From positions 1,472,001 to 1,536,000 of the forward strand of contig CAWIKF010000002.1 in assembly GCA_963836755.1 (NCBI GenBank): a stretch of DNA of 64,000 nucleotides, read 5' to 3'. The position numbers and the translations under genes are program-made. Positions 12,876 through 56,609 of this stretch are shown here, piece after piece (position 1 is the stretch's first letter; each line of letters opens with the position of its first letter). This stretch comes from an uncultured Verrucomicrobiae bacterium. GTDB lineage: Bacteria; Verrucomicrobiota; Verrucomicrobiia; Chthoniobacterales; Chthoniobacteraceae. The notes beneath the pieces were generated by a model. It saw nothing but the letters and a program-made list of their open reading frames with translations, made no database searches and was not told where the DNA came from.

Positions 12876-12891
12876 TCGGACTTTGGTCGTA
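12876..12891 (-). promoter_or_regulatory. Palindromic box 1
   Basis: TCGGAC-TTTG-GTCGTA upstream of the gene starting at 12752. Confidence 0.75.
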
Positions 12892-12985
12892 TGCGTATTC
12901 GCTGCGCTGCCGCCAGCTCAAGATCCCAGTCTGCGGATCCCCAAGCTTAAAGCGGTGACCGCCTATCCTTGCCCGCCGAGCAGCA

Positions 12986-14707
12986 TCAGATCGCGGGAAC
13001 TTTCTGAAAATCGTCGATCGCATCGGCGAGCATGGTGAAGCGGTCGATGCGCCCAATCTTTTCCTCGATGCCTTCGATGCGAAGGATGTCTCGGACGCTC
13101 GAACGCGCTTCGACGAGACGCAAGACGATCCCGCGCTTGGCGATTTCCGCCTGCAGGTTCAGGAACATCCGCGCGCCCGCCATATCCATATTCGGCGAAG
13201 TCGAGAGATCGCCGATGACCAGACGCATCGTTTCACGCGCAGCGTCCAGCCGCGCGATCACGGCATCGAAGATGTGCTCGGCGTTAAAGTAGACGATCGG
13301 CGACTCGACTCGGAACGCGAGAACGCCAGCGATCGGTTCGTTCGACGAATGCCGCTCGAGATCGGAGTAACGCCGCGTGCCGGGGATGCGACCGAGAAAC
13401 GCGACGTGCGGCGCCGACGCCCGGCGGATCAGGCGCACCAGCGAAATAATCGCGCCAAGCATCACCCCTTGCAGCAGGCCGGCCCAGAGCACACCGGCGA
13501 GCGCGGCCATTGCCACCACAAATTCGCCCGTGTGATACTGCCATAGCCTTTTCAGCGCCTTCACTTTGACGAGGCTCGCCACCGCCATCAGCACCACGGC
13601 GGCGAGCACCGGCTGCGGCAGGTTGCGAAGCAGTTCGGTAAAAAAAAGCGCGACGATGAGCATGAGCCCGGTCGCGATTAGCCCGGACAGCGGCGTGCGC
13701 GCGCCGCCGCTTTCATTGACCAACGATTGCGACATGCCGCCGCTGATCGGGAATCCGTGACCCAGCCCGGATGCAAGGTTCGCAGCAGCGAGCCCGAGAA
13801 ACTCCCGGTTGCTGTCGATCCGGTAGCCGTGTTTCTCGGCAAACATTCGCCCGATCGCCGCCGTCTCAACCGCGCCGAGGAGGAAGCACGCAAGAGCCAA
13901 CGGCATCAGCTCGCGGACGGCCTGAGAGTTGACGGCCGGGAGCGACGGGATTGGCAGGCCCCTTGGCACCGGACCCAAAAGTTTCACCCCTTGCGCGCCA
14001 AAGTCGATGAACGATGCCGCTGCGATTCCGCCGATGACGACGAAGAGCGCGACCGGTTTGTTCGGCAGCAGTTTCTTGCCGAGAATCAGCACCGCGAGCG
14101 CGGCGCCGCCGAGCAGGAGCGACGTGCGGTTCGTCTCGCCGATGTGCTGGAGGAAAATTTGAATCCGTTCCCAGAAATCTCCGTGCCCGCCTTTCACGCC
14201 AAAGAGCTTCGGCAATTGCGTGCTCGCGAGGTGCAGCGCGACGCCCGCTTTGAAGCCGAGCATCACGCTTTCCGAGATGAAATTCACCGCCGAGCCCGCG
14301 CGCGCCAGCCACGCAAGAAACGCGATCGCTGCCACCAGCATCGCGGTGCAAGCCGCAAGAGCTGAGTAGCGCCCCGGATCGCCATGCGCCATGCCTCCGA
14401 TCGACGAGCCGATGAGGAGCGAGATCGCCGATGTGACCGTGATCGCCGTTTGCCGCGAACTGCAAAAGAGCCACCAGACAAGCCCGCCGAAAAGACACGC
14501 GTAGATTCCCGCCTGGGGCGGCAACCCGGCCAGCGACGCATCACCGAGCGCTGCCGGCAGCAGATACGCCGCGAGCGTCACGCCCGCCGCGAGGTCCGGT
14601 CGAAAGGATTGGCAATCGTAGCTCGGCAGCCAACGCGCCGCAAAAATCATCCCGCGCCACCGGCTCGGGACTGCAGCCGTGTCAGCGTTGGCAGCGATCG
14701 CGGTCAT
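12986..14707 (-). CDS. SulP family anion transporter with STAS domain
   Basis: DLAAGVTLA, GLPPQAGIY, GGMSQSLVN; C-terminal STAS domain. Confidence 0.93.
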   Translation of the reverse strand: MTAIAANADTAAVPSRWRGMIFAARWLPSYDCQSFRPDLAAGVTLAAYLLPAALGDASLAGLPPQAGIYACLFGGLVWWLFCSSRQTAITVTSAISLLIGSSIGGMAHGDPGRYSALAACTAMLVAAIAFLAWLARAGSAVNFISESVMLGFKAGVALHLASTQLPKLFGVKGGHGDFWERIQIFLQHIGETNRTSLLLGGAALAVLILGKKLLPNKPVALFVVIGGIAAASFIDFGAQGVKLLGPVPRGLPIPSLPAVNSQAVRELMPLALACFLLGAVETAAIGRMFAEKHGYRIDSNREFLGLAAANLASGLGHGFPISGGMSQSLVNESGGARTPLSGLIATGLMLIVALFFTELLRNLPQPVLAAVVLMAVASLVKVKALKRLWQYHTGEFVVAMAALAGVLWAGLLQGVMLGAIISLVRLIRRASAPHVAFLGRIPGTRRYSDLERHSSNEPIAGVLAFRVESPIVYFNAEHIFDAVIARLDAARETMRLVIGDLSTSPNMDMAGARMFLNLQAEIAKRGIVLRLVEARSSVRDILRIEGIEEKIGRIDRFTMLADAIDDFQKVPAI

Positions 14708-14782
14708 GTTCTTTGTCGCCGGGATCGATGTCGGTGGATTTCATCGTGTGGCGACTCCGGGCTCTTGCGAAAACGCGCGACG

Positions 14783-14980
14783 CTATTTGCCTTCCATGAA
14801 TGCCCGGAGTTCCTCGTCCTTATCCTTGGTCAGCGAAGTCTGGAGAACTTTGCCTTTGCCGGCAAAGGGCTTGAGCGCTTCGAGCACTTTGTCGGGCGTC
14901 GATTTGCGCACGAGGACGAAGAGCGCGGAGGTGCCGGTCCGCGTCGCGCCGAGGTCTTTCATGACGACGAGGTTGCTCAT
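14783..14980 (-). pseudogene. DUF1269-like protein with large internal deletion
   Basis: MSNLVV is joined directly to the C-terminal GTSALFVLVRKSTPDKVL...VLQTSL; the Gly-rich core is missing. Confidence 0.65.
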
Positions 14981-15015
14981 GCCGCAATCATGCAAATCCG
15001 TGCGCGGCCGGGGTA

Positions 15016-15031
15016 TCGGACCTAGGTCTTA
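15016..15031 (-). promoter_or_regulatory. Palindromic box 2
   Basis: TCGGAC-CTAG-GTCTTA. Confidence 0.82.
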
Positions 15032-15075: not shown

Positions 15076-15891
15076 TCAATACTTTTCCGGCACAAACTTT
15101 CTTCCCTTCAGCGCGGCCGCGTCGTCGTATGCGCCTTTCTTCGAGCGGTCGGGGAGTTTGATCTTTTCGCGCGGGACTTTCTTGTGAGGGATGAGGCTGA
15201 GGATGTGCGCGAGGCAGTTCAGGCGCGCGCGTTTCTTGTCGTCGGAACGCAGGATGTGCCAGGGCGCATGCTTCGTGTCGGTGGCGTCGAGCATCAGGTC
15301 GCGGGCGCGCGAATACTCATACCACTTGCTCCGCGAAGGAAGATCCATCGGGCTGAGTTTCCACTGGCGGAGCGGATCGTCGATGCGCGCCTCGAAGCGG
15401 CGCTTCTGTTCCTCGTCGCTGGAATCGAGCCAGATTTTGATGAGCTGGATCCCGTTCTCGACCACGAATTTTTCCACATCGGGACAGATCTCGAGGAAGC
15501 GCTTGTGCTGCTCCTTCGTGCAGAAGCCCATCACATACTCGACGCCCGCGCGGTTATACCAACTGCGGTCGAAAATTACGATCTCCCCCGCCGCCGGAAA
15601 ATGCGCCATGTAACGCTGCAAATACATCTGCGACTTCTCGCGCTCGGATGGCGCCGGCAGCGCGACGGTGCGAAACACGCGTGGGCTGACCCGCTCGGTA
15701 AGGGCGCGAATGGTGCCGCCTTTGCCCGCCGCGTCGCGGCCCTCGAAGACGATGATCACGCGGAGACCCTTGTGTTTTACCCACTCCTGGAGGTGGCAGA
15801 GCTCGCCCTGGAGCTTGCGCAGTTCCTTCATGTATTCCTTCGACTTTAGTTTTTCGGATTTTGCGTCGTGGGTTTTGTCATTCTTGCTCAT
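15076..15891 (-). CDS. ppk2: Polyphosphate kinase 2
   Basis: FEGRDAAGKGG, FDRSWYNRAGVE, WKLSPMD. Confidence 0.95.
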   Translation of the reverse strand: MSKNDKTHDAKSEKLKSKEYMKELRKLQGELCHLQEWVKHKGLRVIIVFEGRDAAGKGGTIRALTERVSPRVFRTVALPAPSEREKSQMYLQRYMAHFPAAGEIVIFDRSWYNRAGVEYVMGFCTKEQHKRFLEICPDVEKFVVENGIQLIKIWLDSSDEEQKRRFEARIDDPLRQWKLSPMDLPSRSKWYEYSRARDLMLDATDTKHAPWHILRSDDKKRARLNCLAHILSLIPHKKVPREKIKLPDRSKKGAYDDAAALKGRKFVPEKY

Positions 15892-16013
15892 GATTTTCTT
15901 GCGCGGCGAGATTTGGACGGTTGTCAGGCTTCGAAAAGGGCGGTCGTTCGGCCACTTGGCTGGAACTGCTGACACCCGTTCTCAGTTTCCCCGCAGTGGA
16001 CCGGCTGCGGCTA

Positions 16014-16029
16014 TCGGACCTTGGTCTTA
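16014..16029 (-). promoter_or_regulatory. Palindromic box 3
   Basis: TCGGAC-CTTG-GTCTTA upstream of ppk2. Confidence 0.82.
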
Positions 16030-16102: not shown

Positions 16103-16581
16103 CTACGGCAGCCGGCCGCCGCAACGGCTACAGAAGCGCGCATCGCGGTCGCCTTCGGGGTCGTGGCACTCGGCGCAAATCCACCTTTCTTTGCTCAGCA
16201 CCGTCTGACGCAATTCCATCGAAAGATCCCGGTCGGCACCGCGATGATCCCGTAGCCCATGATCATGATAAAGCAGGCGAGAATGCGACCGGGCACCGTG
16301 TGCGGAGTCACGTCGCTGTAGCCGACGGTCGTGAGGGTGACGATCGCCCAAAGACGCCGCGTGGGATGCTATCAAAACCATTCTCGGCGCCTTCCACCAG
16401 ATACATCTAGGACCACCGCGAGGATGAATGAGAGGAAGATCGCGATCTTGCGCCGGCTGGCATAGAGCAGGCAAATGTCGAACAACTTCCCTCCGCGCGT
16501 CCCGCTCTCGAAGATGATGAGGTAAAGGCGACGCTTCTAAGCGGGCTGATCGCTGCTTCGGCGATTTCGGGAAGACGGCAT
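16103..16581 (-). pseudogene. Ion transporter/K+ channel pseudogene
   Basis: Fragments in different frames: [41 protein letters not shown], and a C-terminal Zn-ribbon FCSRCG. Confidence 0.75.
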
Positions 16582-16639
16582 CTGCTATGGCTCCCGAGCG
16601 GTCGAACTGCATCGCGGCGATGAGCGTGCCGTAATTTGG

Positions 16640-16928
16640 AATAAAAAGTAACCATTCACCTCCTTCGGATTTTTCCGAATGATCCGCTCGGCAATTCGCA
16701 CTAAAAAATCGATCCCGCCCGCAACCTCCATCGCCGAGGCAGCCATGATCACAGTCAGCACAATGAGCAGCACCTCGCCGGGAATTGCCGCCGGCGCGAT
16801 GTCAAAGCCGACAACCAGCACGAGCAATCCCGCTGCGCCCCAGAGGCCAAGTCCCACACCGCCATGCATGCGCCCATTATGAGTGCGCCAAGGATCACTA
16901 GGAATTCCAGGATAAGTCTGATCTCCAT
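16640..16928 (-). pseudogene. Anaerobic C4-dicarboxylate transporter (Dcu) 5' fragment
   Basis: Frameshifted N-terminus: LGALIMGA / GGVGLGLWG...AASAMEVAGGIDFLVRIAERIIRKNPK. Confidence 0.75.
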
Positions 16929-17016
16929 CGGCGGGTGAATGATCCGCAAATCCGACGCCATACACCTTCCGTTGCCAAGTCCGCCGCACTGCCGCGCCGC
17001 ACCGAGAATCGGACGC

Positions 17017-18507
17017 TTACTTTGCCGGGCTGCCGGTGCCTTGAAAATCGCCGCCGAGCGCGAGGTGCAGGTTCACCCGTTCGCGCAGGCGCGAGGCGCG
17101 GATCTTGGTCAGCTCGATTTTGGCGGCAAGGTTCTCGCCAGCGTGGCGCAGGATCGTGAACATGTCGGCGTGGCCTTCGTCAAATTGCTGCCGACCAAAC
17201 TTCAAGGTGTCCGCGCTTGCGTCCACCATCTCGCCCAATGCGGCTTCGCGCTGGCGCAGATAGTAATCGTTCGACAGCGCGTCTTCCACGTCTCCAAACG
17301 CGCGCAGGGCAACGCCGACGTAACTGGCCGTCGCGGCTTTTTGCTCGGCGGTGCGGACATCCTGCGCGGCTTTCAGTTCGCCGCCGAAGAAAATCGGCTG
17401 GATCACTCCTGCAGCGAGGCTCCAGCTGACTGCGTCGATCACGCCCACAGTATCGAGCTGCGCGGTGCCCATGCCGGCGCTGGCGCTGATTGAGAACCGA
17501 GGCAACCGCGCCGCACGCGCCGCAGCCGTGCGATGAAATGCGGCACCGACGCGCTGCTCGGCGGCGAGGATGTCGGGTCGGCGTTCCAGAATTTGCGAGG
17601 GCAGCCCAGCGGGCACGGCTTTCGGCTGCGCGGGAAATGATCGGCGCACATCGAGTCGTCCCGCGGGATAGTTGCTTGTGACAATTTCGATCGCCCGAAT
17701 GGCCTGCGCGCGTGCGGCCTGCGCCGCGATGTAGGTGTCTTTCGCGCCGGCAGTGCGGGAGCGAATTTGTGAAACATCGTAGTCGCTCGCATGGCCTTGC
17801 TGTTTTTTCTTCTGAGTCAGGTCCGAAAAATCCTGGTAAAGTTCGAGAGTTTCGCGGGCGTTGGATTCCTGCTGCGCGGCTTCGATGACGGAAAAGTAGG
17901 CGCGCGCCACCGCCGCCGCGAGCGACTGCCTGGCGAACTCATAATCCTCGGCCAGCGCGACGCTTTCGGCGGCCGCTGCTGCTTTATTCGAGCGCACTCG
18001 CGCCCAGACATCGAGTTCCCAAGAGGCACCAATGCCAAGTCCATACACCCATCGCTGTGTGGAAGGGTCGAGGACGTTGCTCGTGTCGGAGGCGCCGCTG
18101 CTGAGGTCGACGCCGAGTCCGCCGAGGTCCGGTGGATCGATGCCGCCGCCGTGCGAGTCGGTAATCTCGCGGCCCTGACGTTCGCCGAGACCTTTCACAG
18201 CGATGCGCGGATACAGCGAAGACGCGGCGATTTTGATCGCATAGCGCGAAGCTTCCACGTGCGCGGCGGCAGCCTTGAGGTCAGGGTTGCGTGCGACCGC
18301 CTCAGCGACGAGCGCTGTCAGTTGCGGATCGTTGAAGGTGCGAATCCAGTTTGGGACAACGTCGCCCCTTTTGTGTGAGCTGGCCCAGCCGCCGGGAATT
18401 TTGCGCGCCGCGTCGGGTGCGATATCGGCGCCAGTCGGCGGTTTTTGAACGGCACAGCCGGTGACGAGCAGGACGAGAATCGCTCGCGGGAGAAAGGAAT
18501 GTTTCAT
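17017..18507 (-). CDS. Outer membrane efflux lipoprotein (TolC/NodT family)
   Basis: VTGC lipobox, ASWELDVW, GLPSQILERRPDI, ALGG. Confidence 0.92.
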   Translation of the reverse strand: MKHSFLPRAILVLLVTGCAVQKPPTGADIAPDAARKIPGGWASSHKRGDVVPNWIRTFNDPQLTALVAEAVARNPDLKAAAAHVEASRYAIKIAASSLYPRIAVKGLGERQGREITDSHGGGIDPPDLGGLGVDLSSGASDTSNVLDPSTQRWVYGLGIGASWELDVWARVRSNKAAAAAESVALAEDYEFARQSLAAAVARAYFSVIEAAQQESNARETLELYQDFSDLTQKKKQQGHASDYDVSQIRSRTAGAKDTYIAAQAARAQAIRAIEIVTSNYPAGRLDVRRSFPAQPKAVPAGLPSQILERRPDILAAEQRVGAAFHRTAAARAARLPRFSISASAGMGTAQLDTVGVIDAVSWSLAAGVIQPIFFGGELKAAQDVRTAEQKAATASYVGVALRAFGDVEDALSNDYYLRQREAALGEMVDASADTLKFGRQQFDEGHADMFTILRHAGENLAAKIELTKIRASRLRERVNLHLALGGDFQGTGSPAK

Positions 18508-18519
18508 GCGAGACGCGGC

Positions 18520-19704
18520 TTAGTGAAGCTTGAAGACAAACCAGTCCATCTTCGTGGAAACACGGACGAACACCTTGCGGATGATGTGCAGGAGTTTCCC
18601 GTGTTCGGTGTAGATCGCGCCCGCTCCCACCGCGCCGGCGGCGAGAAAGAGTTCCCTGTCCTTTGGTTCAACGAGAAGCCGAACCGCGATTTCCTGATTG
18701 AGGCTGGCGCCCGGGGGGGTGGTTTGCAAATTGCCGCTGATCGGCAATTGACCCTGAGCGGTGGACCAAAGGATCGAGTCCACTTTGCATTTGATGATGC
18801 GCCCGGGATACATCTCGAGGAAAATTTCCGCTTCGTTGCCGGGCTCAACGTAGCGCAATTCGTTCTGATGGTAATAAGCGAGGATCCACGGGTCGTCCTC
18901 CTGGATAAAGCTCATCACGGGCATGGTCGCGAATTGAGTCGCGCGCACGCCGGGCTGGAGTGCGAGATTCGTAACACGACCATTGGCTGGCGCGAGATGA
19001 ACGCAGCCTTCGAGATTATATTTGTCACTGGCGAGGTCGGCTTCCGACTTCGCGATTGCTGCCCTGGCCTGAGCGACCTGGTCGAGCTCGCCAGCCTCAT
19101 TGCGTGCGCTGAGCTTCTGCTTTACTTCGGATTCCGTCGCGTCGGCCGCCAGATACTCGCTCTCCAGATTGCCGAGATCGGCCTGAGCTTGCTCGAGGTC
19201 CGCACGTTTGCCGGCGCCGCTCGCGGCAAGCGAGGTGAATTGCTCGACGCGCTTTTTCGCGAGGTCGAGCCGCGGCTCAAGCGCAGCCTTTTTTGCCGAT
19301 GCGTTCTTGAATTGATCCATCATCCCCCGCTCAAAGGCTTGGGCGGTGACGAGCGTGACCTTGTTCGACTCGAGCGTCGCCTCCGCCGCCTTCACCGCGG
19401 CCTCAAACGGAGTCGGATCAAGCTTGAAAAGCACGTCGCCTTTTTTGATCGGGCGGTTCGGCTCGATCGGCACTTCAGTGACCTGGCCGGTCACGCGCGG
19501 AACGATCGGCACGACATAATTCATCGCGCGGATGTCGTGCGAAGACGGCGCGACGATGTTCATCAAAAGGATGATGACCGCCAGCACGAAGATCGGGATG
19601 GTGACGACGATGACCTGACTGGTGATATTCCAAGGCAGCCACTTTTTCTTGAAAAAAATGAACCAGACGCAGACCGAATAAATGATGAGAAGGATGAGTT
19701 CCAT
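18520..19704 (-). CDS. HlyD-family membrane fusion protein
   Basis: IVPRVTGQV..IKKGDVLFKLD lipoyl-like half motif; APANGRV. Confidence 0.92.
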   Translation of the reverse strand: MELILLIIYSVCVWFIFFKKKWLPWNITSQVIVVTIPIFVLAVIILLMNIVAPSSHDIRAMNYVVPIVPRVTGQVTEVPIEPNRPIKKGDVLFKLDPTPFEAAVKAAEATLESNKVTLVTAQAFERGMMDQFKNASAKKAALEPRLDLAKKRVEQFTSLAASGAGKRADLEQAQADLGNLESEYLAADATESEVKQKLSARNEAGELDQVAQARAAIAKSEADLASDKYNLEGCVHLAPANGRVTNLALQPGVRATQFATMPVMSFIQEDDPWILAYYHQNELRYVEPGNEAEIFLEMYPGRIIKCKVDSILWSTAQGQLPISGNLQTTPPGASLNQEIAVRLLVEPKDRELFLAAGAVGAGAIYTEHGKLLHIIRKVFVRVSTKMDWFVFKLH

Positions 19705-20145
19705 TTACGCCTTTTCTCCTTTGCCCTGCTCGATTTCTGACGCTGGCTTTTCGGCACCGTGATTGCCGATCGATTCATCGACGTCGGTGCCGTAGGCCAT
19801 CTTGTGCAGCACCGGTTTCGTGTAGGTCCAGAGCCATGCGATCGGCCACAGCAGACCGCCGAAACAAAGCGAGAGCAGGCATAAACACTGGATCGCGTGC
19901 GTCTGCGGGTGCTTTTTCTTCTCGGCAATTTTTTCGGGCAGGATGTGGACGAGCCAGAAAACAGTGATGCCAATGATCGGCGCGATGATTAGCACGACCC
20001 ACGAGATTGCGTTGGCGATTGCGTCGAGGGTTTCGCCGTGGAAAAGCGAGGCGTGCGCATGCGTCGGCGCGGCGACGAGCAACGCGAGCACGGCAGGCGC
20101 GACGATTCGCGCAGATCGTCGCGTATGGATTGGATTCGGCTTCAT
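19705..20145 (-). CDS. DUF3302 membrane protein
   Basis: HILPEKIAEKKKHPQ..AI and GGLLWPIAWLW.YTKP signature. Confidence 0.85.
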   Translation of the reverse strand: MKPNPIHTRRSARIVAPAVLALLVAAPTHAHASLFHGETLDAIANAISWVVLIIAPIIGITVFWLVHILPEKIAEKKKHPQTHAIQCLCLLSLCFGGLLWPIAWLWTYTKPVLHKMAYGTDVDESIGNHGAEKPASEIEQGKGEKA

Positions 20146-20326: not shown

Positions 20327-20342
20327 TCGGACTTAAGTCCTA
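20327..20342 (-). promoter_or_regulatory. Palindromic box 4
   Basis: TCGGAC-TTAA-GTCCTA upstream of the DUF3302 operon. Confidence 0.82.
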
Positions 20343-20361: not shown

Positions 20362-21297
20362 TCATGACGCCTTTTTCACCGCGAGCGTCGCCTCGGTCAT
20401 CCGGAGCGCGCTGAGTTCGCTCACGAAAGTGTTGAAGCGCTGAAAGAGAGTCGTGAAATCGCGGTTCAGTTCGTTGATCGATTTTTTCATCGCTTGATCC
20501 AGATCCATCGCTTCCTTGAGCGCGACCTCGCGAGAATCCGCTTCCGCCGCGCGCAACACCTCTTGCTTCTGCTGGCGCCGTTCGGCGATGAGAGCGTCGT
20601 TTTTCGCGATGTCCGCTGCGCGCTGTTTTTGACGGGCAGGATCGCTGGTGGCCGCATGCTGCGCGCGCAATTCGCGGCCCATCCGATCGAGCCGCGCGAT
20701 GCTCGCGTCGAGTTGCTTGAGGAGCGTGGCGCGCTGGGTATTGCCGTGCGAGGTGAGGCGGCGATTGTGTTCGAAATCCTCGTTGCGCTGGTATTCGGTG
20801 CCGGACCAGCCGCCGCCCGTGGCGGTGTAGCGTTCGTAGTCCTTGTGCGACGGCATCGACTTGTTCAACGCAATAATTTGATCGATCCGCTTTTCGATCC
20901 GTTGATCGAAGACGGCGACGAGCTTGTGCTTGTCGTCCGCGGTGAGCGCGCTGTGCGGATTCAGCAGTTCCTGACGAAAAACGCGCCGCTTCTTGTCGTA
21001 GTATTCGATCGTCTTCGCGAGGCGTTTCATCGTCTCCTCTTTCATCCTGGCAACCTTCGTGCGCGAATTTTTTGAGTCGGTAATCGCGCTCAGCGCTTGG
21101 ATAATGTCGTCCATCCTTGCTTCGATGTCCGCGTCGGTTTGTTTCATCTCGTCGCGCAGTAGATCGACTCGTTGCTGACGGACGTCGATCAAGGACTTGA
21201 GCTGGCCGGCAGCCGGTTCGGCGCTTTGTGCGAACAAATTTGCAGCGGCGCCGACGGCGAGGCTGAACGAAAGAACGCGAAGGAAGGGAATGGACAT
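20362..21297 (-). CDS. Secreted coiled-coil hypothetical protein
   Basis: Signal peptide followed by a long charged helical sequence. Confidence 0.75.
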   Translation of the reverse strand: MSIPFLRVLSFSLAVGAAANLFAQSAEPAAGQLKSLIDVRQQRVDLLRDEMKQTDADIEARMDDIIQALSAITDSKNSRTKVARMKEETMKRLAKTIEYYDKKRRVFRQELLNPHSALTADDKHKLVAVFDQRIEKRIDQIIALNKSMPSHKDYERYTATGGGWSGTEYQRNEDFEHNRRLTSHGNTQRATLLKQLDASIARLDRMGRELRAQHAATSDPARQKQRAADIAKNDALIAERRQQKQEVLRAAEADSREVALKEAMDLDQAMKKSINELNRDFTTLFQRFNTFVSELSALRMTEATLAVKKAS

Positions 21298-21334: not shown

Positions 21335-21350
21335 TGGGACTTTGGTCCTA
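21335..21350 (-). promoter_or_regulatory. Palindromic box 5
   Basis: TGGGAC-TTTG-GTCCTA. Confidence 0.82.
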
Positions 21351-22032: not shown

Positions 22033-22168
22033 TTTCAAAGGTTTTTCCGACACGGCGTTCAGATGCTCTAATCCTGCTACGGAACGCGGAGACGTCAAGA
22101 CTTCTGCCCAGAGTGAAGTGTTACATTTGTGTGTCAGCTTTCCACGGTGGCGGTTGCATCCAGCCGTA

Positions 22169-22184
22169 TAGGACATTGGTCTTA
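22169..22184 (+). promoter_or_regulatory. Palindromic box 6
   Basis: TAGGAC-ATTG-GTCTTA between the regulator gene and the divergent gene at 22243. Confidence 0.82.
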
Positions 22185-22242
22185 TGGACGCCTCGGCGCG
22201 GGAGGCGCACTTTTTCCTCTTCTCATACAACTCGTGGCTCGC

Positions 22243-23139: not shown

Positions 23140-23141
23140 CT

Positions 23142-26302: not shown

Positions 26303-26308
26303 AAAACT

Positions 26309-47476: not shown

Positions 47477-47492
47477 TAAGACCAAGGTCCGA
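47477..47492 (+). promoter_or_regulatory. Palindromic box 14
   Basis: TAAGAC-CAAG-GTCCGA upstream of fba. Confidence 0.85.
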
Positions 47493-47548: not shown

Positions 47549-48574
47549 ATGCCTGTCGCCGACTACAAAACTTACTGCAAAATTCTCGACCGCGCCCGCG
47601 CCGGCCGCTTCGCGCTGCCCGCCGTCAACGTCACCTCACTCACCACCGCCAACGCCGTCTTGCGCGGCCTCGCCGAGAGCAAGAGCGACGGCATCATCCA
47701 AATTTCCACGGGCGGCGGCGCGTTTGCATCGGGCTCGGCGCTGAAGGACATGGCGCTCGGCGCGATTGCGATCGCGGAGCACGTGCATCGCGCGGCGGCG
47801 CGTTACAACATCTACGTCGCGCTGCACACCGACCATTGTTTGAAAGACAAGCTTGACAAATTTGTCCTGCCGCTCGTCGAGGAAACGGAGAAGCGCCGCG
47901 CGGCGGGCCGACCCAATCTTTTCAACTGCCACATGTTCGATGGGAGCAATCTCTCGTTGCAGGAGAACATCCAAATTTCCGCAAAGCTGCTCGAACGCTT
48001 TAAGAAAAACGATCTCATCCTCGAAATCGAAACGGGCGCGGTGGGCGGCGAGGAAGATGACGTCGTCGGTGAAAAGGGCGCAAAACTTTATACCACTCCC
48101 GAGGACACGCTCGAAGTCGCGCGGGAGCTGAATCCAATCAGCGGCCGCTACTTGCTCGCGGCGACTTTTGGCAACGTCCACGGCGTTTACAAACCGGGCC
48201 ACGTGAAGCTAAAGCCGAGCGTGCTGAAGGCGTGTGATGATGCCGTCGCAAAGGCGCATGGAGAGGATGCGCGCTTCGATTTTGTATTCCACGGCGGCTC
48301 GGGATCAACGCTGGCGGAGATTCACGAATCACTCGACTACGGCGTGGTGAAGATGAACGTCGATACCGACATGCAGTATTCATTCACGCGTGCAGTCGCG
48401 GGACACATGTTTAAAAACTACGACGGCGTTCTGAAGGTGGACGGCGAGGTCGGGAACAAGAAAGCCTATGATCCGCGCGCTTATCTCGCCCTCGCTGAGG
48501 CGTCGATGGCGGAACGGGTGAAGCAGGCGGTGAGCGATCTGCGCGGCACGGGGACGACGATGTTTGCGGCGTAA
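47549..48574 (+). CDS. fbaA: Class II fructose-bisphosphate aldolase
   Basis: LHTDHC, HMFDGS, TFGNVHGVY, FHGGSG, KMNVDTD. Confidence 0.96.
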   Translation: MPVADYKTYCKILDRARAGRFALPAVNVTSLTTANAVLRGLAESKSDGIIQISTGGGAFASGSALKDMALGAIAIAEHVHRAAARYNIYVALHTDHCLKDKLDKFVLPLVEETEKRRAAGRPNLFNCHMFDGSNLSLQENIQISAKLLERFKKNDLILEIETGAVGGEEDDVVGEKGAKLYTTPEDTLEVARELNPISGRYLLAATFGNVHGVYKPGHVKLKPSVLKACDDAVAKAHGEDARFDFVFHGGSGSTLAEIHESLDYGVVKMNVDTDMQYSFTRAVAGHMFKNYDGVLKVDGEVGNKKAYDPRAYLALAEASMAERVKQAVSDLRGTGTTMFAA

Positions 48575-48599: not shown

Positions 48600-48615
48600 T
48601 CCGACCTTGGTCCCA
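48600..48615 (+). promoter_or_regulatory. Palindromic box 15
   Basis: TCCGAC-CTTG-GTCCCA upstream of eno. Confidence 0.7.
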
Positions 48616-48671: not shown

Positions 48672-51067
<2,396 letters not shown>

Positions 51068-51107
51068 CAGCGCGTCACTCTCGCCCAAACCTAGAGATCC
51101 AATCACC

Positions 51108-52544
51108 ATGAACGCGGCGCTTCCCGACCACAAAACGAAGATTGTCGCAACGATCGGACCGGCTTCGGAATCGCCGGAGATGCTCGAGCGCCTCATCCGA
51201 GCAGGGCTGAACGTCGCGCGGCTAAACTTTTCGCACGGCGAATTTTCCAAACACGCAGAGGTGGTCAAACGCATTCGCGCGGCGGCGCAGGCCACAGGCC
51301 GGCGCGTCGCGATCATGGCCGATCTGCCGGGGCCGAAAATGCGCGTTGGAAAGGTTTCGCCGGAGCCAATCTTGCTCGTGCCCGGGGAAATGTTTACGCT
51401 CACGAATGAAGAAATCGTCGGCGATGCGCAGCGCGTTTCGATGAGCTTTGAGCCTCTGCCGCGTGTGGTAAAGCCAGACGACCGGCTTTTTCTCAATGAC
51501 GGACTCCTCCAACTGATCGTCAAAAGCGTCGAGGGCAACGACGTTCATTGCGTGGTTGCGGTTGGCGGGGAGTTGAGGTCAAAAAAGGGACTCAATCTGC
51601 CGGGTATCGACCTCGGCATCAGCGCGTTCACAGAGCGCGATCGCGAATGTCTCGAATTTGCGCTCGACGCCGGCGTGGATGCGGTGAGTCAGTCTTTTGT
51701 CGAGCGCGCCCGCGACATCGAGGCAGTGCGCGAGGCGGCGACGAAGCTCGGGCGGGTGCCGTTCATTATCGCAAAAATCGAGCGATCGGATGCGCTCAAG
51801 TATTACGACGAAATCCTCGCGGTGGCCGATGGCATCATGGTTGCGCGCGGCGATCTCGGCGTGGAGGTGCCGATCGAGGCGATCGCGCAGACGCAGAAGC
51901 AGCTCATCGCGAAAGCAAACCTCGCGAGCAAGCCCGTCATCACGGCCACGCAAATGCTCGAATCAATGGTCAGCAGCCGCCTGCCCACGCGCGCCGAGGC
52001 AACCGACGTCGCCAATGCGATCCTCGACGGCACCGATTGCGTGATGCTCTCCGGCGAATCGGCGATGGGTAAATTTCCCGAGGAAGCAGTGACGATGCTG
52101 GCAAAGATTGCAGCTTACGCCGAGACGCATCGCGTGCGCGCCGCCCTCGCCGCGCGCCGCGCGTTTTTCGCACAAGACACGCCGCCGACGCCGGATAGCA
52201 GGATCGCATCGCTCGTGGAATACACCTTCGACACCGTGCCTTGCGACCTGGCGCTGGTGCCGACGCATAGCGGCAAAACCGCGCGCGTCATTTCCGGGCG
52301 CAAGCCGCCAGTGTGGATCCTCTCTCCCAGCAGGGACGCCGCTGTTTGCCAGGGGCTCGCGTTTTCCTACGGTGTTTATCCAGTCGATCTCGCGGATGAA
52401 CCGGACGATTGGCGGGAGTTCAACACACGCATGTGCTCTGAGCACGGCATTGATGCGAGCCGTGTCATTCTCGTCGCCGGCCCCTCCGCGCGAAATCCGC
52501 GGGCAAATCACCGCATCGAGCTCATGCAACTCTCCCCGCGGTAA
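51108..52544 (+). CDS. pyk: Pyruvate kinase
   Basis: TKIVATIGP, RLNFSHG, IAKIE, MVARGDLGVE, ATQMLESM. Confidence 0.96.
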   Translation: MNAALPDHKTKIVATIGPASESPEMLERLIRAGLNVARLNFSHGEFSKHAEVVKRIRAAAQATGRRVAIMADLPGPKMRVGKVSPEPILLVPGEMFTLTNEEIVGDAQRVSMSFEPLPRVVKPDDRLFLNDGLLQLIVKSVEGNDVHCVVAVGGELRSKKGLNLPGIDLGISAFTERDRECLEFALDAGVDAVSQSFVERARDIEAVREAATKLGRVPFIIAKIERSDALKYYDEILAVADGIMVARGDLGVEVPIEAIAQTQKQLIAKANLASKPVITATQMLESMVSSRLPTRAEATDVANAILDGTDCVMLSGESAMGKFPEEAVTMLAKIAAYAETHRVRAALAARRAFFAQDTPPTPDSRIASLVEYTFDTVPCDLALVPTHSGKTARVISGRKPPVWILSPSRDAAVCQGLAFSYGVYPVDLADEPDDWREFNTRMCSEHGIDASRVILVAGPSARNPRANHRIELMQLSPR

Positions 52545-52699: not shown

Positions 52700-52916
52700 A
52701 GAGAGACAAACTGCGGTAAACCCGCCAGAAAAGGGTCGTCCGGCCTAGTTTTCCAGCAACCGCCTTCTTCACGACCGACATCGTCGCTCGTTTGGGCGCC
52801 TCAAAGCTGCTAGAGTTCTGTTTCGTGGCGAGCCGACCAACGTGGGTCCCATTACTGCGGTGATTTTCGATGACACCTGTGGAAACCTCATCAACTTAGT
52901 TCAACCTGCGGCCTAA
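52700..52916 (+). pseudogene. VOC/glyoxalase cassette gene remnant
   Basis: FPATAFFTTDI / RLKAARVLFRGEPTNVGPITAVIFDDTCGNLINLVQ*, with a frameshift. Confidence 0.7.
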
Positions 52917-52970
52917 CCATGCGCTGCAGCGAACCGGCTCCGCCTGTAGCTGATCTTGTTCTCGTTAGGC
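52911..52970 (+). mobile_element. Isolated 60-bp attC site
   Basis: GCCTAACCATGCGCTGCAGCGAACCGGCTCCGCCTGTAGCTGATCTTGTTCTCGTTAGGC; same family as the array sites. Confidence 0.9.
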
Positions 52971-53298
52971 GCTTTTCCACGCACGAGCCAAGCAACACGC
53001 ACCCAAAATGGAGCAAGCTTCCGAGACTGAACTATTTCGCCGGCGTATCGAGGTCGTCCTCGATTTCATTTCTGACGACATCTTCCCGCTTATGCTTCGC
53101 TGGCTGGTTATTGCTCTCCTCTTCATCGGCCTGGCCAGGCAGCGGATGGGTGAGCTTAAAACGTCTCGCCAGCTTCGATGAAGGTCGTCGATCTCGATCA
53201 CGCAGCCATCGGCTCGAACTCAGGAGCCTTTTCCCTCTTCGCGCGATGCACACCGGCTCGATTTTGTCGTGCGCTACGATCTCGTGCGCTGACGCGAA

Positions 53299-54345
53299 TT
53301 AAAATCCGGCCCGTCCTTCGCGGATGCGGTGGGAAAAATCAGGATCGGCGTCCGCGGATTTTGCCGCGTGATTGATGCGCGCTTGTTCTTTCAATTCGGG
53401 GAAACTCAACCCGCCGGGGGCGAGGGCGTGGCGTTCGAAAAGCAGCTCGTCCATTTTGCCATTGAGAAGGATTCGCCAATCCCATGGCGTCCGCTTCGCG
53501 GCGGCGCGCTGAGTGCGGATGCTCGTCGTGCAGTTACTCGTCGCCGCGTTATACCAGCACGGCTTGGCATGCATGGCGTTGAGCGCGCCAAGGTAATCCT
53601 CGAATCGTTCGCGCGCCTGTGCCGGAGCCATGTCGAGCCGGTAGAGGTAAACGTCCTCGCCCTTGCGGTAGTTGGTGCGCACGCGGATGACATCGCGTTC
53701 GTTGGCGACGATGTAAATCAACTCATATTGCCGGTAGAGACCGCCGACTGCCGAATAGCTCTCGCCGATTTCTTTGCGTGTCTCGATTGAAAAGCATACT
53801 GGCGGCGCGTCGGCAAACTGGAAGCTCGCGACGGGATGCGCGATGTAAGCCGAACCCCAATAATTGATCGCGAGGTCGAGGCCGGTGATCTGCGAAAGTC
53901 GCACCGTGCGCGTTTCCCAGCGCGGAGTGAAATCGGTTTCGGTGCGGTAATCGAAATTGCGGACATTGTGCAGCACGACAGTGTCGCCGCTGATTTCGGC
54001 CCAAGCTGTTCGATCCACGTCCGGCTGCCACCGGCGATCCTGGCTCGGCTGCAGCGTGAACCACCAGACGAGCACCAGCGCAAACAGGACGATGAGCGCG
54101 CCGAGCTTTCTGAATGGGCCGCGGACGAAAATACCAGCCGCGGCCACAGCGCACAAAAACGCCACGGCGACCGCGCTTTTCCAAAACGGAGAATCGTAAT
54201 ACAGCGCGCCCACCGCCCAGGCATCGCAACCAAGCGCTATCGGCCAGGCGAGCCAGAGCGCGATGGTGCGAAAGGCGCGGCGCGGCCCGTAGCAGCGGTG
54301 CTTATCGCGGCCACCAGCGCTGTCATCCGCTGCCGTGCTCTCCAT
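53299..54345 (-). CDS. DUF4105 (Lnb N-terminal-like) membrane protein
   Basis: HNVRNFDYRTETDF, IAHPVASF, YNAATSNCTT. Confidence 0.85.
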   Translation of the reverse strand: MESTAADDSAGGRDKHRCYGPRRAFRTIALWLAWPIALGCDAWAVGALYYDSPFWKSAVAVAFLCAVAAAGIFVRGPFRKLGALIVLFALVLVWWFTLQPSQDRRWQPDVDRTAWAEISGDTVVLHNVRNFDYRTETDFTPRWETRTVRLSQITGLDLAINYWGSAYIAHPVASFQFADAPPVCFSIETRKEIGESYSAVGGLYRQYELIYIVANERDVIRVRTNYRKGEDVYLYRLDMAPAQARERFEDYLGALNAMHAKPCWYNAATSNCTTSIRTQRAAAKRTPWDWRILLNGKMDELLFERHALAPGGLSFPELKEQARINHAAKSADADPDFSHRIREGRAGF

Positions 54346-54770
54346 TACTCGGGATCGAGAAGCGCCAGCGGGACTTCCAGCCATTCCGCTGCCGCGGCCC
54401 GCTCTCGGAATGTGCGCACTTGGATCGACGCGTCTTCCATGAGCGCCTCATACATCCGCGCGATACCGAATCCCGCCACCGTGCTGGAGAAAAAGGCCGA
54501 TTTCGCCGGCTGAACGACGTCCCGCCGACGGTCGGCGATTTTGAAGACATGTCCGATCGTCAGCCGGATTCTGGTGAGCTCGCTGAAATCTGCATAGCGG
54601 TGAAACGGACGTTCATTAAAAAGTTCCTCCGTCTCGATGACGGCGACGATCGCGTCTGCAACGGCGTCGGTAAGTTCTCCGCGCGGATGCCATGTAAAGA
54701 GCCGGGCTCCCGGGTGAAAGCGCGTGTGGTCAAAGAGCCGTAGGATATCAGCAACTGGAATCTCGTTCAT
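54345..54770 (-). CDS. Hypothetical protein (STAS/SpoIIAA-like)
   Basis: FGIARMYE...FRERAAAAEWL; TAATG overlap with the next gene. Confidence 0.65.
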   Translation of the reverse strand: MNEIPVADILRLFDHTRFHPGARLFTWHPRGELTDAVADAIVAVIETEELFNERPFHRYADFSELTRIRLTIGHVFKIADRRRDVVQPAKSAFFSSTVAGFGIARMYEALMEDASIQVRTFRERAAAAEWLEVPLALLDPE

Positions 54771-54792
54771 TTCTTGCGTGACGGCTGAAACG

Positions 54793-56454
54793 CTACCGCG
54801 CAGCGTGGAGCGTGAGGATGCGCTCTACCTCGGCGATTGCCTCGAGGTTTTGATGCGCGCTGTGACCGGACGGGACAATCAACTCGGATTTCGCCCCCGG
54901 CATGTGACTGCTCCAGTAGGGGACGACGCCGTCGGACATTGTCGGGTTCGTCTGGTCTTTGTTCCCGTCCTTTCCTCGATCGCCGCAGATGACGTGATAC
55001 GGAATCCCCGGTGTGATCGGGATGGTATTGATCGCTTTCACAAAGCGATTGTTCGGCGCAAGCGTGTCGACGCTGTTCGGGATGCGTTTGAGCTTCAGGT
55101 CGTCAGCTCCAAACGCCGCCGCGTCGATCGCTTCGGCACCCACTTTGAGCAAAGTCGTCGGCGAGCGCACGAGCATTGAGCCGATCCGGCCGAGCCAGTT
55201 GCTCGCGAGATTGCTGCCTCGCAGCGGCGAGGAGATGAAAATCACGCGTCCCACTTCCGGCCTGTGCTGAAAGATCAGCGCGTCGGTCAGAAGCTTCCGG
55301 TTTTCGGGCGAAAGTTTTGTTTGCTCCGGAGTTTTTTTGAAAATCGCCGTCCAAAGTTTGTCCCCGGTGTCGGTGATGAGCAGCCGGCTGATACAGCCGC
55401 CCATGCTGTGCCCGATGACAACAATTTTACGCCGCAGCGGGAAACGTTTTTCGATCGCATCCAACTGGTGACGCAGGATGAGAGCGGAGTAAGGATAAGG
55501 ATAGCCGCTCGGGTAGCTGTAAAACCAGAATTGGTAATTGCGGCGAATTCGCTCATCGCCGCGCAGATGATTGAGCATCGGCGCCCAAGTCGCGGGCGAG
55601 TCCATCAACCCATGGATGACAAGGACGACGGTCTTATCGGGATCGTAGGGCTGAAGCCGCGCGATGCGTGCGGTCTCGGCATATTTCTCCGGACGCAGCA
55701 GGCGCGAGAGTTCCTGCTTTTTCGGGTTCATGGACTTCAGCATCACAGCCAGCGGCACGGTGAAATCCGCCGCGAGCGCATAAGACCTATTGCCCAGGCG
55801 GACGGTCTCGACATCCAGCGGATCCTCGAAATCAATCACGGCGCGGCGTCCCTCAAAACGAATGATCGCTGTGACACCGTAGAAGATTCGCTTGGTGGTA
55901 AAGTCCCGGTCAGCTCCTGCGTAATCGGCGCGCGCAACGGCAACCAACGGTGCGCCGATCCCTTCCCTTCGAACTCTCTCTTTCACATAGGTGCCGCGCA
56001 CGTCAAATTGATCAGCAGGGGTGAAATCGTAAAGCGCCGGGTTTCGCTGCGGGCGCGGGTCGGGCTTGTGCGCCAGCACGAATTCCCCACCGGCGGATGG
56101 CACGCGCAGCGGTTGCGACCACGGCTCGAGCTTCGCGCTTTTGAGCACGGTGAAAACGCGAGCAACAGCAAAGTTGTAGCGCTCACGCGCGGCTATGTCC
56201 GCGGGATTTGTCTTAAGCTGTCGCGCCGCCGAATCGGCGGCTGCCAGAAATTCACCGAGCGCTGCCCGCGGCTCACGGCGCTCCTCGCGCATGGCGATTT
56301 CGAAGCCCTGGGTTTCCTTCTGCGCAGTCGCCGCATCGACCAAGCCGCGGACGGGGCGAAAGGTCGGTTTCTTTTCGGAGATCGTTGCATATTGCGCGCA
56401 GCCGGCGAGAAGCAGAGCTGCTGCGGCTACGAGACCGAGCTTGGAGAGGTTCAT
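54793..56454 (-). CDS. Alpha/beta-hydrolase lipoprotein, paralog B
   Basis: LAGC lipobox and GHSMGG; long identical blocks shared with 34089-35711. Confidence 0.9.
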   Translation of the reverse strand: MNLSKLGLVAAAALLLAGCAQYATISEKKPTFRPVRGLVDAATAQKETQGFEIAMREERREPRAALGEFLAAADSAARQLKTNPADIAARERYNFAVARVFTVLKSAKLEPWSQPLRVPSAGGEFVLAHKPDPRPQRNPALYDFTPADQFDVRGTYVKERVRREGIGAPLVAVARADYAGADRDFTTKRIFYGVTAIIRFEGRRAVIDFEDPLDVETVRLGNRSYALAADFTVPLAVMLKSMNPKKQELSRLLRPEKYAETARIARLQPYDPDKTVVLVIHGLMDSPATWAPMLNHLRGDERIRRNYQFWFYSYPSGYPYPYSALILRHQLDAIEKRFPLRRKIVVIGHSMGGCISRLLITDTGDKLWTAIFKKTPEQTKLSPENRKLLTDALIFQHRPEVGRVIFISSPLRGSNLASNWLGRIGSMLVRSPTTLLKVGAEAIDAAAFGADDLKLKRIPNSVDTLAPNNRFVKAINTIPITPGIPYHVICGDRGKDGNKDQTNPTMSDGVVPYWSSHMPGAKSELIVPSGHSAHQNLEAIAEVERILTLHAAR

Positions 56455-56530
56455 GAAATCCAGGTTTGGGCGCTTGAGTGACGCGACGCCAGTTGAATTG
56501 GATATTGGACGACTCAGACGGGCGTGCACA

Positions 56531-56546
56531 TAGGACCTTTGTCCTA
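56531..56546 (-). promoter_or_regulatory. Palindromic box 16 (perfect arms)
   Basis: ATAGGAC-CTTT-GTCCTAT. Confidence 0.88.
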
Positions 56547-56593
56547 TAGCAAACCGCCGTCGCCGGATTCGCGGAGTCAGCTTGATCGCGGAA

Positions 56594-56609
56594 TAGGATC
56601 AAGGTCCGA
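56594..56609 (+). promoter_or_regulatory. Palindromic box 17
   Basis: TAGGAT-CAAG-GTCCGA. Confidence 0.75.

Follow-up and report, generated by a model that had tools for sequence, protein, structure and literature searches.

What does a short palindrome do when it stands before gene after gene along some 44 kb of DNA and almost nowhere else in the genome? The question is raised by a window of 64,000 nucleotides (C2:1472001-1536000) from an uncultured Verrucomicrobiae bacterium of the family Chthoniobacteraceae, whose assembly comprises four contigs and 3,183,637 bases (3.18 Mb). An initial annotation, made from the letters alone, had pointed to 17 copies of a 16-bp inverted repeat, called boxes here, between positions 12876 and 56609 of this window, and had proposed that they define a block-wide regulon akin to that of DosR in mycobacteria. 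The answer offered here is that the 17 boxes are probably operator sites of a response regulator encoded in the block itself (21379-22032), which would be phosphorylated by a sensor kinase of the same block, sit as a dimer at about -43 and activate 17 transcription units (TUs). Positions are those of the window; contigs carry C numbers, and the genomes and loci used for comparison carry G and L numbers.

Boxes, their orientation and the predicted promoters next to them

All 17 sixteen-mers named by the initial annotation are present. Sixteen of them fit the pattern T..GAC....GTC..A, and the one at 56594 has GAT in place of GAC. This pattern, which involves no training, occurs 44 times in the genome; 16 of these matches fall in the block, where 0.61 would be expected. 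The pattern GGAC-N4-GTCC is found eight times in the window against 0.89 expected, a count reached in none of 100 shuffles, and one of the eight, at 24650, is an unrelated match inside a coding sequence and no box. When a 20-column symmetric matrix trained on the 17 sites was run over the whole assembly, it returned 24 matches of at least 12 bits and 18 of at least 20 bits. The block's boxes account for 17 of the 18 strong sites; the eighteenth lies at C1:131899 (23.2 bits), and the next match in the genome, at C1:396922, has 17.4 bits. Because the matrix had been trained on those same sites, they were rescored with each one left out in turn, and the held-out scores came to 17.5-26.2 bits, while the best other position in the 64 kb window reached only 6.7 bits. 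The last value agrees with an earlier scan by eye, which had seen no box in 1-12500 or beyond the transfer-messenger RNA (tmRNA) gene, and the genome-wide motif search suggested along with that scan shows the strong concentration in the block. The 17 boxes are real and nearly confined to the block.

The sole strong box outside the block (C1:131901-131916) reads TAAGACCAAGGTCCAA in the direction of its gene, followed by TAGG. It lies 96 nt upstream of an open reading frame (ORF) of 271 aa, divergent from an asparagine synthase gene, and the first 133 residues of the product match the N-terminal half of beta-ketoacyl synthase. This box possibly marks one regulon member outside the island.

The position of the boxes relative to genes depends on the gene model, in which five starts of longest ORFs were shortened on homology or domain grounds: those of a SnoaL-like gene, the hydrolase gene abh578, orf150, the histidine kinase gene and the pyruvate kinase gene. 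By this model, coding sequence takes up 89% of 12800-56700 and all 17 boxes fall outside genes; without the shortening, the longest ORF of the SnoaL-like gene alone would cover a box (22169). Four small ORFs that are hidden by the longest-ORF list are conserved in relatives, namely 12534-12752 (minus strand), 14783-14995 (minus), 44497-44934 (plus) and 25353-25805 (minus). Because these four were recognised, all 17 boxes are seen to lie 5' of a gene, rather than the 16 counted at first, and the claim that every copy is intergenic stands. The supposed exception, the box at 12876, precedes the 72-aa ORF at 12534-12752, whose orthologue in L081 also follows a box. The divergent boxes at 38166 and 38219 are oriented one to each gene, as had been noted.

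Every box thus stands on the 5' side of a gene, and all have the same orientation to their genes. Read toward the gene, the box is TA(A/G)GACCAAGGTCCGA followed by TAG.C. The oriented matrix is asymmetric, with T at position 1 in 17/17 boxes, A at position 2 in 14/17, A at position 9 in 15/17 and C at position 14 in 16/17; in the 3' flank, the first base is T in 16/17 and the next is A in 10/17. The central AA runs in the gene direction in 12 of 14 informative boxes (p 0.013, manual count). Trained on this genome only, the oriented matrix gave the right gene direction for 21 of 22 boxes of relatives. These 22 have a recognisable homologue on one side only, with boxes upstream of regulator genes excluded; three of them share one gene, and related genomes are not independent.

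One could also consider that the boxes are not regulatory at all, and that they represent a REP- or MITE-like element, a recombination site or a chance palindrome. They are, after all, short and nearly perfect palindromes in many copies, and a variant, TTGGACTWWAGTCCAA, which is often found in pairs about 30 nt apart in other genomes, could be such an element. Conservation here, however, extends over about 19 nt only, with unrelated flanks on either side; all copies are outside coding DNA and face a gene. Copies also persist before orthologous genes in genera where the rest of the intergenic DNA has diverged, and chance is excluded by the enrichment. For this type of box, a repeat without a regulatory role is effectively refuted, and we give it next to no credence.

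If the boxes are operators, their distance from the promoter should say something about how they work. For this, 51 oriented sites were aligned, the 17 of this genome and 34 of the 52 boxes of relatives. Within 60 nt on either side, information exceeds 0.45 bits at a single flank position, 29 nt past the box, where T is present in 34/51 sites against about 10 expected (p 1.4e-12) and in 10/17 for this genome by itself (p 6e-4). A is enriched at +25 (25/51) and +26 (20/51). The resulting nAAnnT at +24 to +29 has the spacing from A(-11) to T(-7) of a -10 hexamer. Read as such, it leaves a spacer of 17 bp to TAG.C, which then falls at the -35 position, and puts the start of transcription about 36 nt past the box and the box centre near -43.5, which would be the geometry of an activator, with the start site a predicted one. 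The shortest gaps between box and start codon, 37-38 nt for orf311, polyphosphate kinase 2 (PPK2) and glycogen phosphorylase (GlgP), fall just past that predicted start and fit very short leaders; those of phosphofructokinase (PFK), the PLD-like protein, YkuD and orf124 are 44-48 nt. Other promoter types were considered by eye against their consensus sequences, and the spacing of the boxes fits neither an extracytoplasmic-function (ECF) -35/-10 pair nor a sigma-54 -24/-12 element.

The same boxes and the same regulator might work in the opposite sense, with a repressor sitting on or next to the core promoters that is released or dephosphorylated upon a signal. Gaps of 37-48 nt in seven units leave little room for promoter and leader downstream and also fit an operator that overlaps the core promoter, i.e., repression. 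The related StyR, according to PMC2442086, is likewise able to repress from additional sites. On the other hand, a fixed orientation of an asymmetric site is needed by an activator that touches RNA polymerase and not by a roadblock. The -10-like signal and the TAG.C directly past the box place the box upstream of the core promoter, not over it, and close family members with known sites activate from about -40. Repression is, on balance, unlikely, and activation is the reading that we carry forward.

The candidate regulator, its putative kinase and their distribution

The protein that would bind the boxes consists of an N-terminal receiver (REC) domain (PF00072, 1.7e-24) and a C-terminal GerE helix-turn-helix (HTH) domain (PF00196, 2e-19), the architecture of the NarL/FixJ family. 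Compared with solved structures, it matches StyR (1yio) at 2.4e-45, FixJ (5xso) at 1.4e-35 and DevR (3c3w) at 4e-13, and DevR ranks tenth, behind StyR, FixJ, NarL and others. Its best NCBIfam model is FixJ (NF006900), with 181.6 bits against a cutoff of 255, which falls short of an equivalog assignment. Of the original proposal, the block-wide regulon is supported, with boxes that are nearly exclusive to the block, lie on the promoter side and are conserved in other genera; the close kinship with DosR does not, given how far DevR falls behind StyR.

The nearest loci with a homologous regulator belong to uncultured Verrucomicrobiae, Prosthecobacter, Phragmitibacter and Verrucomicrobium sp. In each of the six closest (L001-L006, 60-75% identity), a box lies 160-300 bp upstream of the regulator gene. 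Among the 79 regulator loci examined, nine have a box of at least 14 bits and 70 have none. A strict pattern, TNRGACYWWRGTCYNA, is present in 8 of 41 related genomes, and its backwards control never rose above 2; a regulator of at least 58% identity is found in five of the eight genomes with the strict pattern and in none of the 33 others. The presence of boxes follows the recognition helix as well. Homologues with boxes nearby have the helix (A/S/V)EKT(V/I)K(I/V)HR(G/A)RVMEK or a near variant of it, such as ALKTVKVQRGRVMEK in L104 and a Q for E near the end in L083 and L089. Homologues from Acidobacteriaceae (50-55% identity) have AE(S/N)TVKV.RSRA(M/L)EK and no box.

The box also precedes orthologues of block genes in five genomes of other genera (G006, G021, G030, G041 and G052). 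These boxed orthologues include PFK (83-85% identical), the series GlgP, K+-channel-like protein (Kch) and Ca2+/H+ exchanger (CaX), PPK2/SulP, DUF3302-HlyD-TolC, orf311, YkuD, hydrolases, orf145-GlgX, the AspT-like transporter and stand-alone receivers. For example, the DUF3302-HlyD-TolC set follows a box in L005 and L006, and it also does so in L082 and on contig C1 of G052, where REC/DUF1269 genes come in between. Orthologues of orf311 come after boxes in L082 and L087, and the divergent arrangement of response regulator and SnoaL-like gene with a box is seen in L001, L003 and L082. The order box, PFK, histidine kinase is kept in G052 and box, PFK in L089, while in L080 the box is about 950 nt upstream of PFK. 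An AspT-like transporter (80% identical) follows a box in G052, YkuD does so in L083 and G052, box-GlgP-Kch-CaX is kept in L091 and box-orf145-GlgX in L005. The hydrolase of TU16 follows a box in L083, and Lnb homologues come after boxes of a variant type in L085 and L086 (the latter in G030).

In one case, the arrangement as a whole has a counterpart. A contig of 70 kb in G052, which belongs to a different genus, carries 15 boxes of at least 17 bits along with many genes of the block in changed order, namely GlgP, PLD, YkuD, AspT-like transporter, PFK-kinase, hydrolase and SnoaL/regulator. The arrangement is, then, not unique to this genome. In G006, G021 and G030, the regulon is split among several smaller clusters. 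In sum, other genera have the box before their orthologues of these genes, and it co-occurs with orthologues of the regulator, which supports the link to the 21379-22032 protein drawn in the initial annotation.

Several further occurrences of such palindromes were seen. A variant box, TTGGACT(A/T)(A/T)AGTCCAA, which is nearer to the DosR core, is found in G030, G077, G079 and G083. In G030, it forms clusters at C2:2867931-2892108 and 5032219-5039247, next to a paralogous regulator whose helix has EGT for EKT. In G077 and G083, which belong to a different genus of the family, the exact 16-mer TTGGACTWWAGTCCAA is found in 14 copies that are frequently paired at a distance of about 30 nt. The variant box could be either the mark of a sister regulon or a repeat element. 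Two further genomes, G103 and G104, have 25 and 55 matches to the strict pattern, their sequences not being listed. Among 151 genomes of the family, 43 have a match to the strict pattern and 22 have three or more, counts that overstate this regulon, as many of the genomes in one genus carry the exact variant TTGGACTWWAGTCCAA, which may belong to a separate system.

Outside the phylum, a betaproteobacterial metagenome-assembled genome (MAG; L035) has a regulator with 44.5% identity overall and the same helix, EKTIKVHRARVMEK, with boxes TTGGACCAA(A/G)GTCCAA at 10640 and 11749, a short way downstream of the gene for this regulator. One box (24.6 bits) is found at 1560 in L057, a locus from a Bdellovibrio MAG. 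The pairing of helix and box may reach beyond Verrucomicrobia.

The boxes might still be operators of a different DNA-binding protein, from outside the block or among its unassigned proteins, with the regulator as merely one of the targets. Five block proteins have no family match (orf311, orf426, orf591, orf150 and orf145). In relatives, four of the seven boxes upstream of regulator genes point away from the regulator gene (L002, L004, L005 and L006). What speaks against a different binder is that, from genome to genome, boxes go along with regulator orthologues and their recognition helix, and that a 16-bp palindrome with GAC-N4-GTC is the type of site bound by dimers of GerE-type HTH proteins, as in the printed DosR consensus. 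The G030 paralogue with the altered helix EGT, moreover, sits in a cluster of a box that is itself changed, TTGGACTAAGGTCCAA. The DNA-binding domain of the regulator is the only one found among the block proteins scanned, and the other REC-HTH paralogues in this genome are only 27-33% identical to it. Another binder is thus quite improbable, and the block's own regulator remains the candidate for the boxes.

The candidate partner of the regulator is the sensor kinase encoded in the PFK operon (26309-28852). A signal or transmembrane (TM) segment comes first, followed by a periplasmic domain some 330 residues long and another TM segment; a PAS_3 domain and a kinase core of the FixL type complete the protein, in which PAS_3, HisKA and HATPase_c are the only Pfam domains. 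Against FixL (NF041777) it scores 201.5 bits where the cutoff is 850, and the match covers only positions 248-482 of 485, which does not make it a FixL. The PAS domain is closest to 3mr0 and 3nja, which are not FixL, and matches FixL at 2.9e-6. No solved relative of the periplasmic domain was found by sequence; it weakly resembles ABC_sub_bind (Pfam E 0.022; protein atlas clusters 0.92-0.95), which serves as a lead only. The partnership is proposed because the kinase has a FixL-type core and because homologous kinases adjoin the regulator gene in seven loci (L001, L002, L009, L083, L084, L102 and L104). Its sensor part would point to a periplasmic ligand.

Some findings weigh against activation by this regulator from every box, or against the kinase as a sensor of oxygen or redox state. 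The boxes at 38219 and 48600 break the rule of the central AA, and the -10-like signal is weak and is missing at its offset for several promoters (38219, 44476 and 48600). The 51 sites from which that signal was drawn leave out ten boxes of the variant type from G030, four of weak orientation and the four regulator-upstream boxes that point away from the regulator gene. The last four suggest that what looks like autoregulation may instead be control of the divergent neighbour. G002 and G011 have two and three matches to the strict pattern, yet no regulator was found in them at E 1e-40 when 73 first-look candidates were scored of 89 and 115, respectively. Finally, neither Pfam nor NCBIfam nor the comparison of PAS structures revealed a GAF domain, a haem-PAS or a recognisable oxygen or redox sensor in the kinase. 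G002, a genome of the same genus in which neither the regulator nor the block was found, still has one perfect consensus box, TAAGACCAAGGTCCGA, at C17:82221-82236, with no homologue of a block gene within 8 kb.

The genes of the block and its borders

The gene content is as the initial annotation had it: Pfam and NCBIfam support glycogen breakdown, glycolysis as far as a lactate-type dehydrogenase, PPK2, ion and solute transporters, an L,D-transpeptidase and hydrolases. The glycolytic genes of the block are second copies in the genome. Compared with the copies elsewhere, enolase is 76% identical, glyceraldehyde-3-phosphate dehydrogenase (GAPDH) 86%, the glycogen debranching enzyme GlgX 59%, pyruvate kinase (PK) 36%, PFK 30% and fructose-bisphosphate aldolase (FBA) 26%. 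The island enolase shows 76-81% identity to all the enolases with which it was compared, while the housekeeping copy shares 88% with those of congeners; the island enolase is, to judge by these identities, an old paralogue with no donor that can be named.

How could such a set of genes be put to use? In the mechanism that we propose, the block's sensor kinase would phosphorylate the regulator, and a dimer of the latter would occupy each box, its centre lying about 43 bases before the start of transcription. Binding would switch on all 17 transcription units together. Glycogen would then be degraded by GlgP and GlgX and passed through the second PFK, FBA, GAPDH, enolase and PK to the lactate-type dehydrogenase. 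PPK2 would use polyphosphate, and ion and solute transport and the cross-linking of the cell wall would change alongside. The four central parts of this picture, namely the regulator as the box-binding protein, activation rather than repression, the kinase of the PFK operon as partner and the role as a reserve switch, are what we infer from the features described above. Judging by the outputs, one may reasonably guess at a shortage of energy or oxygen as the trigger.

The block lies between a tRNA-Val gene (12250-12321, minus strand) on the left and the tmRNA gene (57032-57388, minus strand) on the right. These were the only two matches to Rfam in the whole window, and no known leader RNAs were found between boxes and genes. 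Boxes 1 to 11 and their units are on the minus strand. Box 1 (12876-12891), which reads TACGACCAAAGTCCGA in gene orientation, stands 123 nt 5' of the 72-aa ORF that makes up TU1 (12534-12752); the ORF has no Pfam match, and the one that follows the box in L081 is 64% identical to it. Box 2 (15016-15031) leads to TU2 (12986-14995), with a small DUF1269 membrane protein (14783-14995) and a SulP-family permease with a STAS domain (12986-14707). Behind box 3 (16014-16029) is TU3, the PPK2 gene (15076-15975), whose product matches PF03976 at 2e-95 and TIGR03707 above its cutoff.

Box 4 (20327-20342) precedes TU4 (16103-20145), which begins with efflux genes, namely a DUF3302 protein (19705-20145), an HlyD-type adaptor (18520-19704) and a NodT/TolC-type outer-membrane factor (17017-18507), and goes on with a fragment of a Dcu transporter (16585-16989) and orf169 (16103-16612). 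The fragment is a remnant on the minus strand, a 134-aa ORF that matches only positions 12-85 of the anaerobic C4-dicarboxylate transporter family and is 89% identical to a fragment in G021. Behind box 5 (21335-21350) comes the secreted-looking orf311 (TU5, 20362-21297), with its start codon 37 nt past the box. Box 6 (22169-22184) lies where the regulator gene and the SnoaL-like gene diverge and is oriented to the regulator, which forms TU6 (21379-22032) and is the candidate box-binding protein by its Pfam domains, REC and the GerE/LuxR HTH. The divergent pair on the plus strand (22129-24917) consists of the SnoaL/DUF4440-like gene, whose longest ORF starts at 22129 and whose true start is probably about 22240, and orf591 (23142-24917); it may share box 6 with the regulator gene.

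TU7 is the small, secreted-looking orf150 (25353-25805; probable start 25747) behind box 7 (25840-25855), which has a 37% identical ORF in L085. Box 8 (30087-30102) opens TU8 (25913-30042), with the ATP-dependent PFK (28801-30042), the sensor histidine kinase, for which 26309-28852 is the longest ORF, and a stand-alone receiver (25913-26302). At 30033-31271 on the plus strand, an ORF for a PP2C (SpoIIE-type) phosphatase is in frame with an upstream ORF that holds the start of a PAS_7 domain, and one stop codon (30558-30560) splits the two; the pair has the look of a PAS-PP2C signalling gene that an in-frame stop has interrupted, or else of an assembly error. Box 9 (34033-34048) precedes TU9 (31291-33988), with the PLD-like protein (33215-33988) and an AspT/YidE/YbjL-family transporter with TrkA_C domains (31291-33189). 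TU10 (34089-36718), behind box 10 (36767-36782), encodes the YkuD L,D-transpeptidase (35720-36718) and the alpha/beta hydrolase abh540 (34089-35711). Box 11 (38166-38181) stands before orf426 (TU11, 36815-38095).

With box 12 (38219-38234), the genes turn to the plus strand. TU12 (38273-43740) begins with GlgP (38273-40735), the K+-channel-like protein (40763-41197) and the Ca2+/H+ exchanger (41201-42295) and ends with a D-2-hydroxyacid/D-lactate dehydrogenase-like gene (42493-43332) and orf122 (43372-43740). Beyond it, at 43903-44307 on the minus strand, is a second remnant, a 134-aa ORF that matches only the first 140 or so positions of a family of FAD-dependent oxidoreductases of about 500 residues. 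Box 13 (44476-44491, plus) leads to TU13 (44497-47073), with the conserved orf145 (44497-44934) and GlgX (44965-47073). TU14, behind box 14 (47477-47492, plus), is the class II FBA (47549-48574), recognised by Pfam and NCBIfam. Box 15 (48600-48615, plus) precedes TU15 (48708-52544), the enolase (48708-49991), GAPDH (50021-51067) and PK (longest ORF 51000-52544) genes, all three of which are second copies in the genome.

At the right end, box 16 (56531-56546, minus) serves TU16 (53299-56529, minus), with abh578 (longest ORF 54793-56529, probable start 56454), which is 57% identical to abh540, and an Lnb_N-domain protein (53299-54384). Box 17 (56594-56609, plus), the one in which GAT replaces GAC, faces TU17 (56656-57030, plus), a putative heptad-repeat ORF of uncertain coding status (orf124) that lies over a 21-nt tandem array. 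The array itself has about ten copies at 56773-57003, with box 17 on one side and the 3' end of the tmRNA gene on the other, and one of its frames encodes the heptads GADEPLL/GVDEPRF; similar arrays are found at C2:1549181-1549588 and C2:1422517-1422759. A repeat of another kind, about 60-130 nt long and with no Rfam match, occurs in the window at 156-290, 4964-5095, 6233-6299, 7844-7940 and 52900-52984. Both same-genus genomes have it too, in numerous copies of 76-100% identity that are spread over many contigs. On the 57 kb contig C4, adjacent paralogues of the SulP permease (25%), the AspT/YidE-like transporter (51%) and the 2-hydroxyacid dehydrogenase (36%) lie at 3378-7356, with no box.

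Is the block a mobile island? Its place between two RNA genes is that of one. The regulator was not found at E 1e-40 in either of the two same-genus genomes (G001 and G002, each 91% complete). On the left, the flank has similar DNA in the congeners up to 12321 (G002) or 12079 (G001), and similarity to G002 resumes at 57033. Between these borders, the congeners show only matches at the level of paralogues on other contigs (searched for all but window 40001-44000). General family scans found no integrase among the block ORFs scanned. No direct or inverted repeats link the borders, and no repeat of the ends of the tRNA-Val or tmRNA genes longer than 11 nt was found in the window. The GC content, 0.575-0.629 in the block against 0.58 for the contig, is not telling. 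A simple insertion was considered and set aside: the DNA beyond tRNA-Val in G002 matches other parts of the present genome, the tmRNA gene of G002 lies on another, short contig and no clean empty site was found. Since neither an att site nor an integrase was found and the congeners' own DNA next to tRNA-Val and tmRNA is unrelated, loss in the congeners and gain here cannot be told apart. In a single search of public runs with window 30001-40000, three soil metagenome runs of DNA type matched and no RNA run did.

A broader idea can be put forward tentatively, and we hold it to be doubtful rather than likely. The block may be a self-contained, transferable cassette for mobilising reserves, with its own kinase and regulator, an operator on every promoter, a private glycolysis and enzymes that mobilise glycogen and polyphosphate; its site between tRNA-Val and tmRNA, its apparent lack in congeners and the similar 70 kb cluster of another genus are what prompt the idea. 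It might be gained or lost as one unit and serve aerobic soil Verrucomicrobia as a DosR-like programme for surviving dormancy or anoxia. Such a programme would be convergent with that of mycobacteria, with a regulator of the StyR/FixJ type and a periplasmic ligand.

Comparison with known two-component regulons

Verrucomicrobia are abundant in soil and barely studied genetically, and to our knowledge almost nothing is known of their promoters and regulons. As the initial annotation had surmised, literature searches gave no description of the motif or of such a regulon in the lineage; matches to the motif string were in unrelated papers on eukaryotes. The locus gives a very clean operator motif, and about 35 genes are predicted to switch together. 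It also offers a first promoter model for the lineage, made up of the box, TAG.C at -35, a 17-bp spacer, nAAnnT and very short leaders. The idea that aerobes survive energy shortage by running glycogen and polyphosphate through dedicated isoenzymes to a lactate-type end product can be tested, and cultured relatives (L003 and L006) carry both the regulator and the box, so the prediction can be taken to the bench.

A close parallel in design is SsrA-SsrB and SPI-2. According to PMC2837388, SsrB, a regulator of the NarL/LuxR type, drives the promoters of its own island through a degenerate 7-4-7 palindrome of 18 bp whose orientation matters. The palindrome is described there in all promoters of the SPI-2 type III secretion system but one, and 24 palindromes lie upstream of 24 SsrB-regulated genes or operons (PMC2837388). 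The two systems share a response regulator encoded by the island and a single palindrome with a 4-bp spacer that is oriented to the gene. They differ in that the present cargo is metabolic and envelope-related and not a secretion system, the half-site is another one, the phylum is another, and the block is known from its sequence alone. Here, also, 17 of 18 strong sites are inside the island, as compared with the 24 palindromes for 24 genes or operons described for SsrB.

Part of the DosR regulon of mycobacteria is clustered, and it contains a phosphofructokinase and functions for survival, as the block does; kinases of the DosS/DosT type are haem-GAF sensors. The kinase of the block has no GAF domains, and the regulator is not orthologous to DevR. 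The sites are alike in the GAC-N4-GTC core, in an A/T centre and in being paired with a LuxR-type HTH. The outer half-sites differ, being TA(A/G)GAC and TCGGAC here and (C/G)GGGAC for DosR. The 20-bp consensus printed for DosR/DevR of Mycobacterium tuberculosis is TTSGGGACTWWAGTCCCSAA (PMC2275270), and the likeness in box geometry that had been claimed from the start holds for the core, GAC-N4-GTC being the same in both.

By structure, the closest comparison is StyS-StyR of Pseudomonas fluorescens ST, with StyR (1yio) aligned over residues 11-199. According to PMC2442086, phosphorylation makes StyR dimerise, and its high-affinity site for activation is at about -40, which is the geometry that is proposed here. 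StyR acts on one catabolic operon with three sites and IHF, in contrast to one site per promoter at 17 promoters in the block; the architecture of the sensor kinase differs as well. FixL-FixJ of rhizobia is similar in that NCBIfam ranks FixJ first for the regulator and the FixL core first for the kinase. Both scores, however, are below their cutoffs, and the kinase has a domain resembling periplasmic binding proteins that is absent from FixL.

All in all, the block is well supported as an undescribed but conceptually standard two-component regulon, comparable to those of SsrB in SPI-2, DosR and StyR. What is unusual about it is the near-complete confinement of its sites to one island and the duplication of core glycolysis within it.

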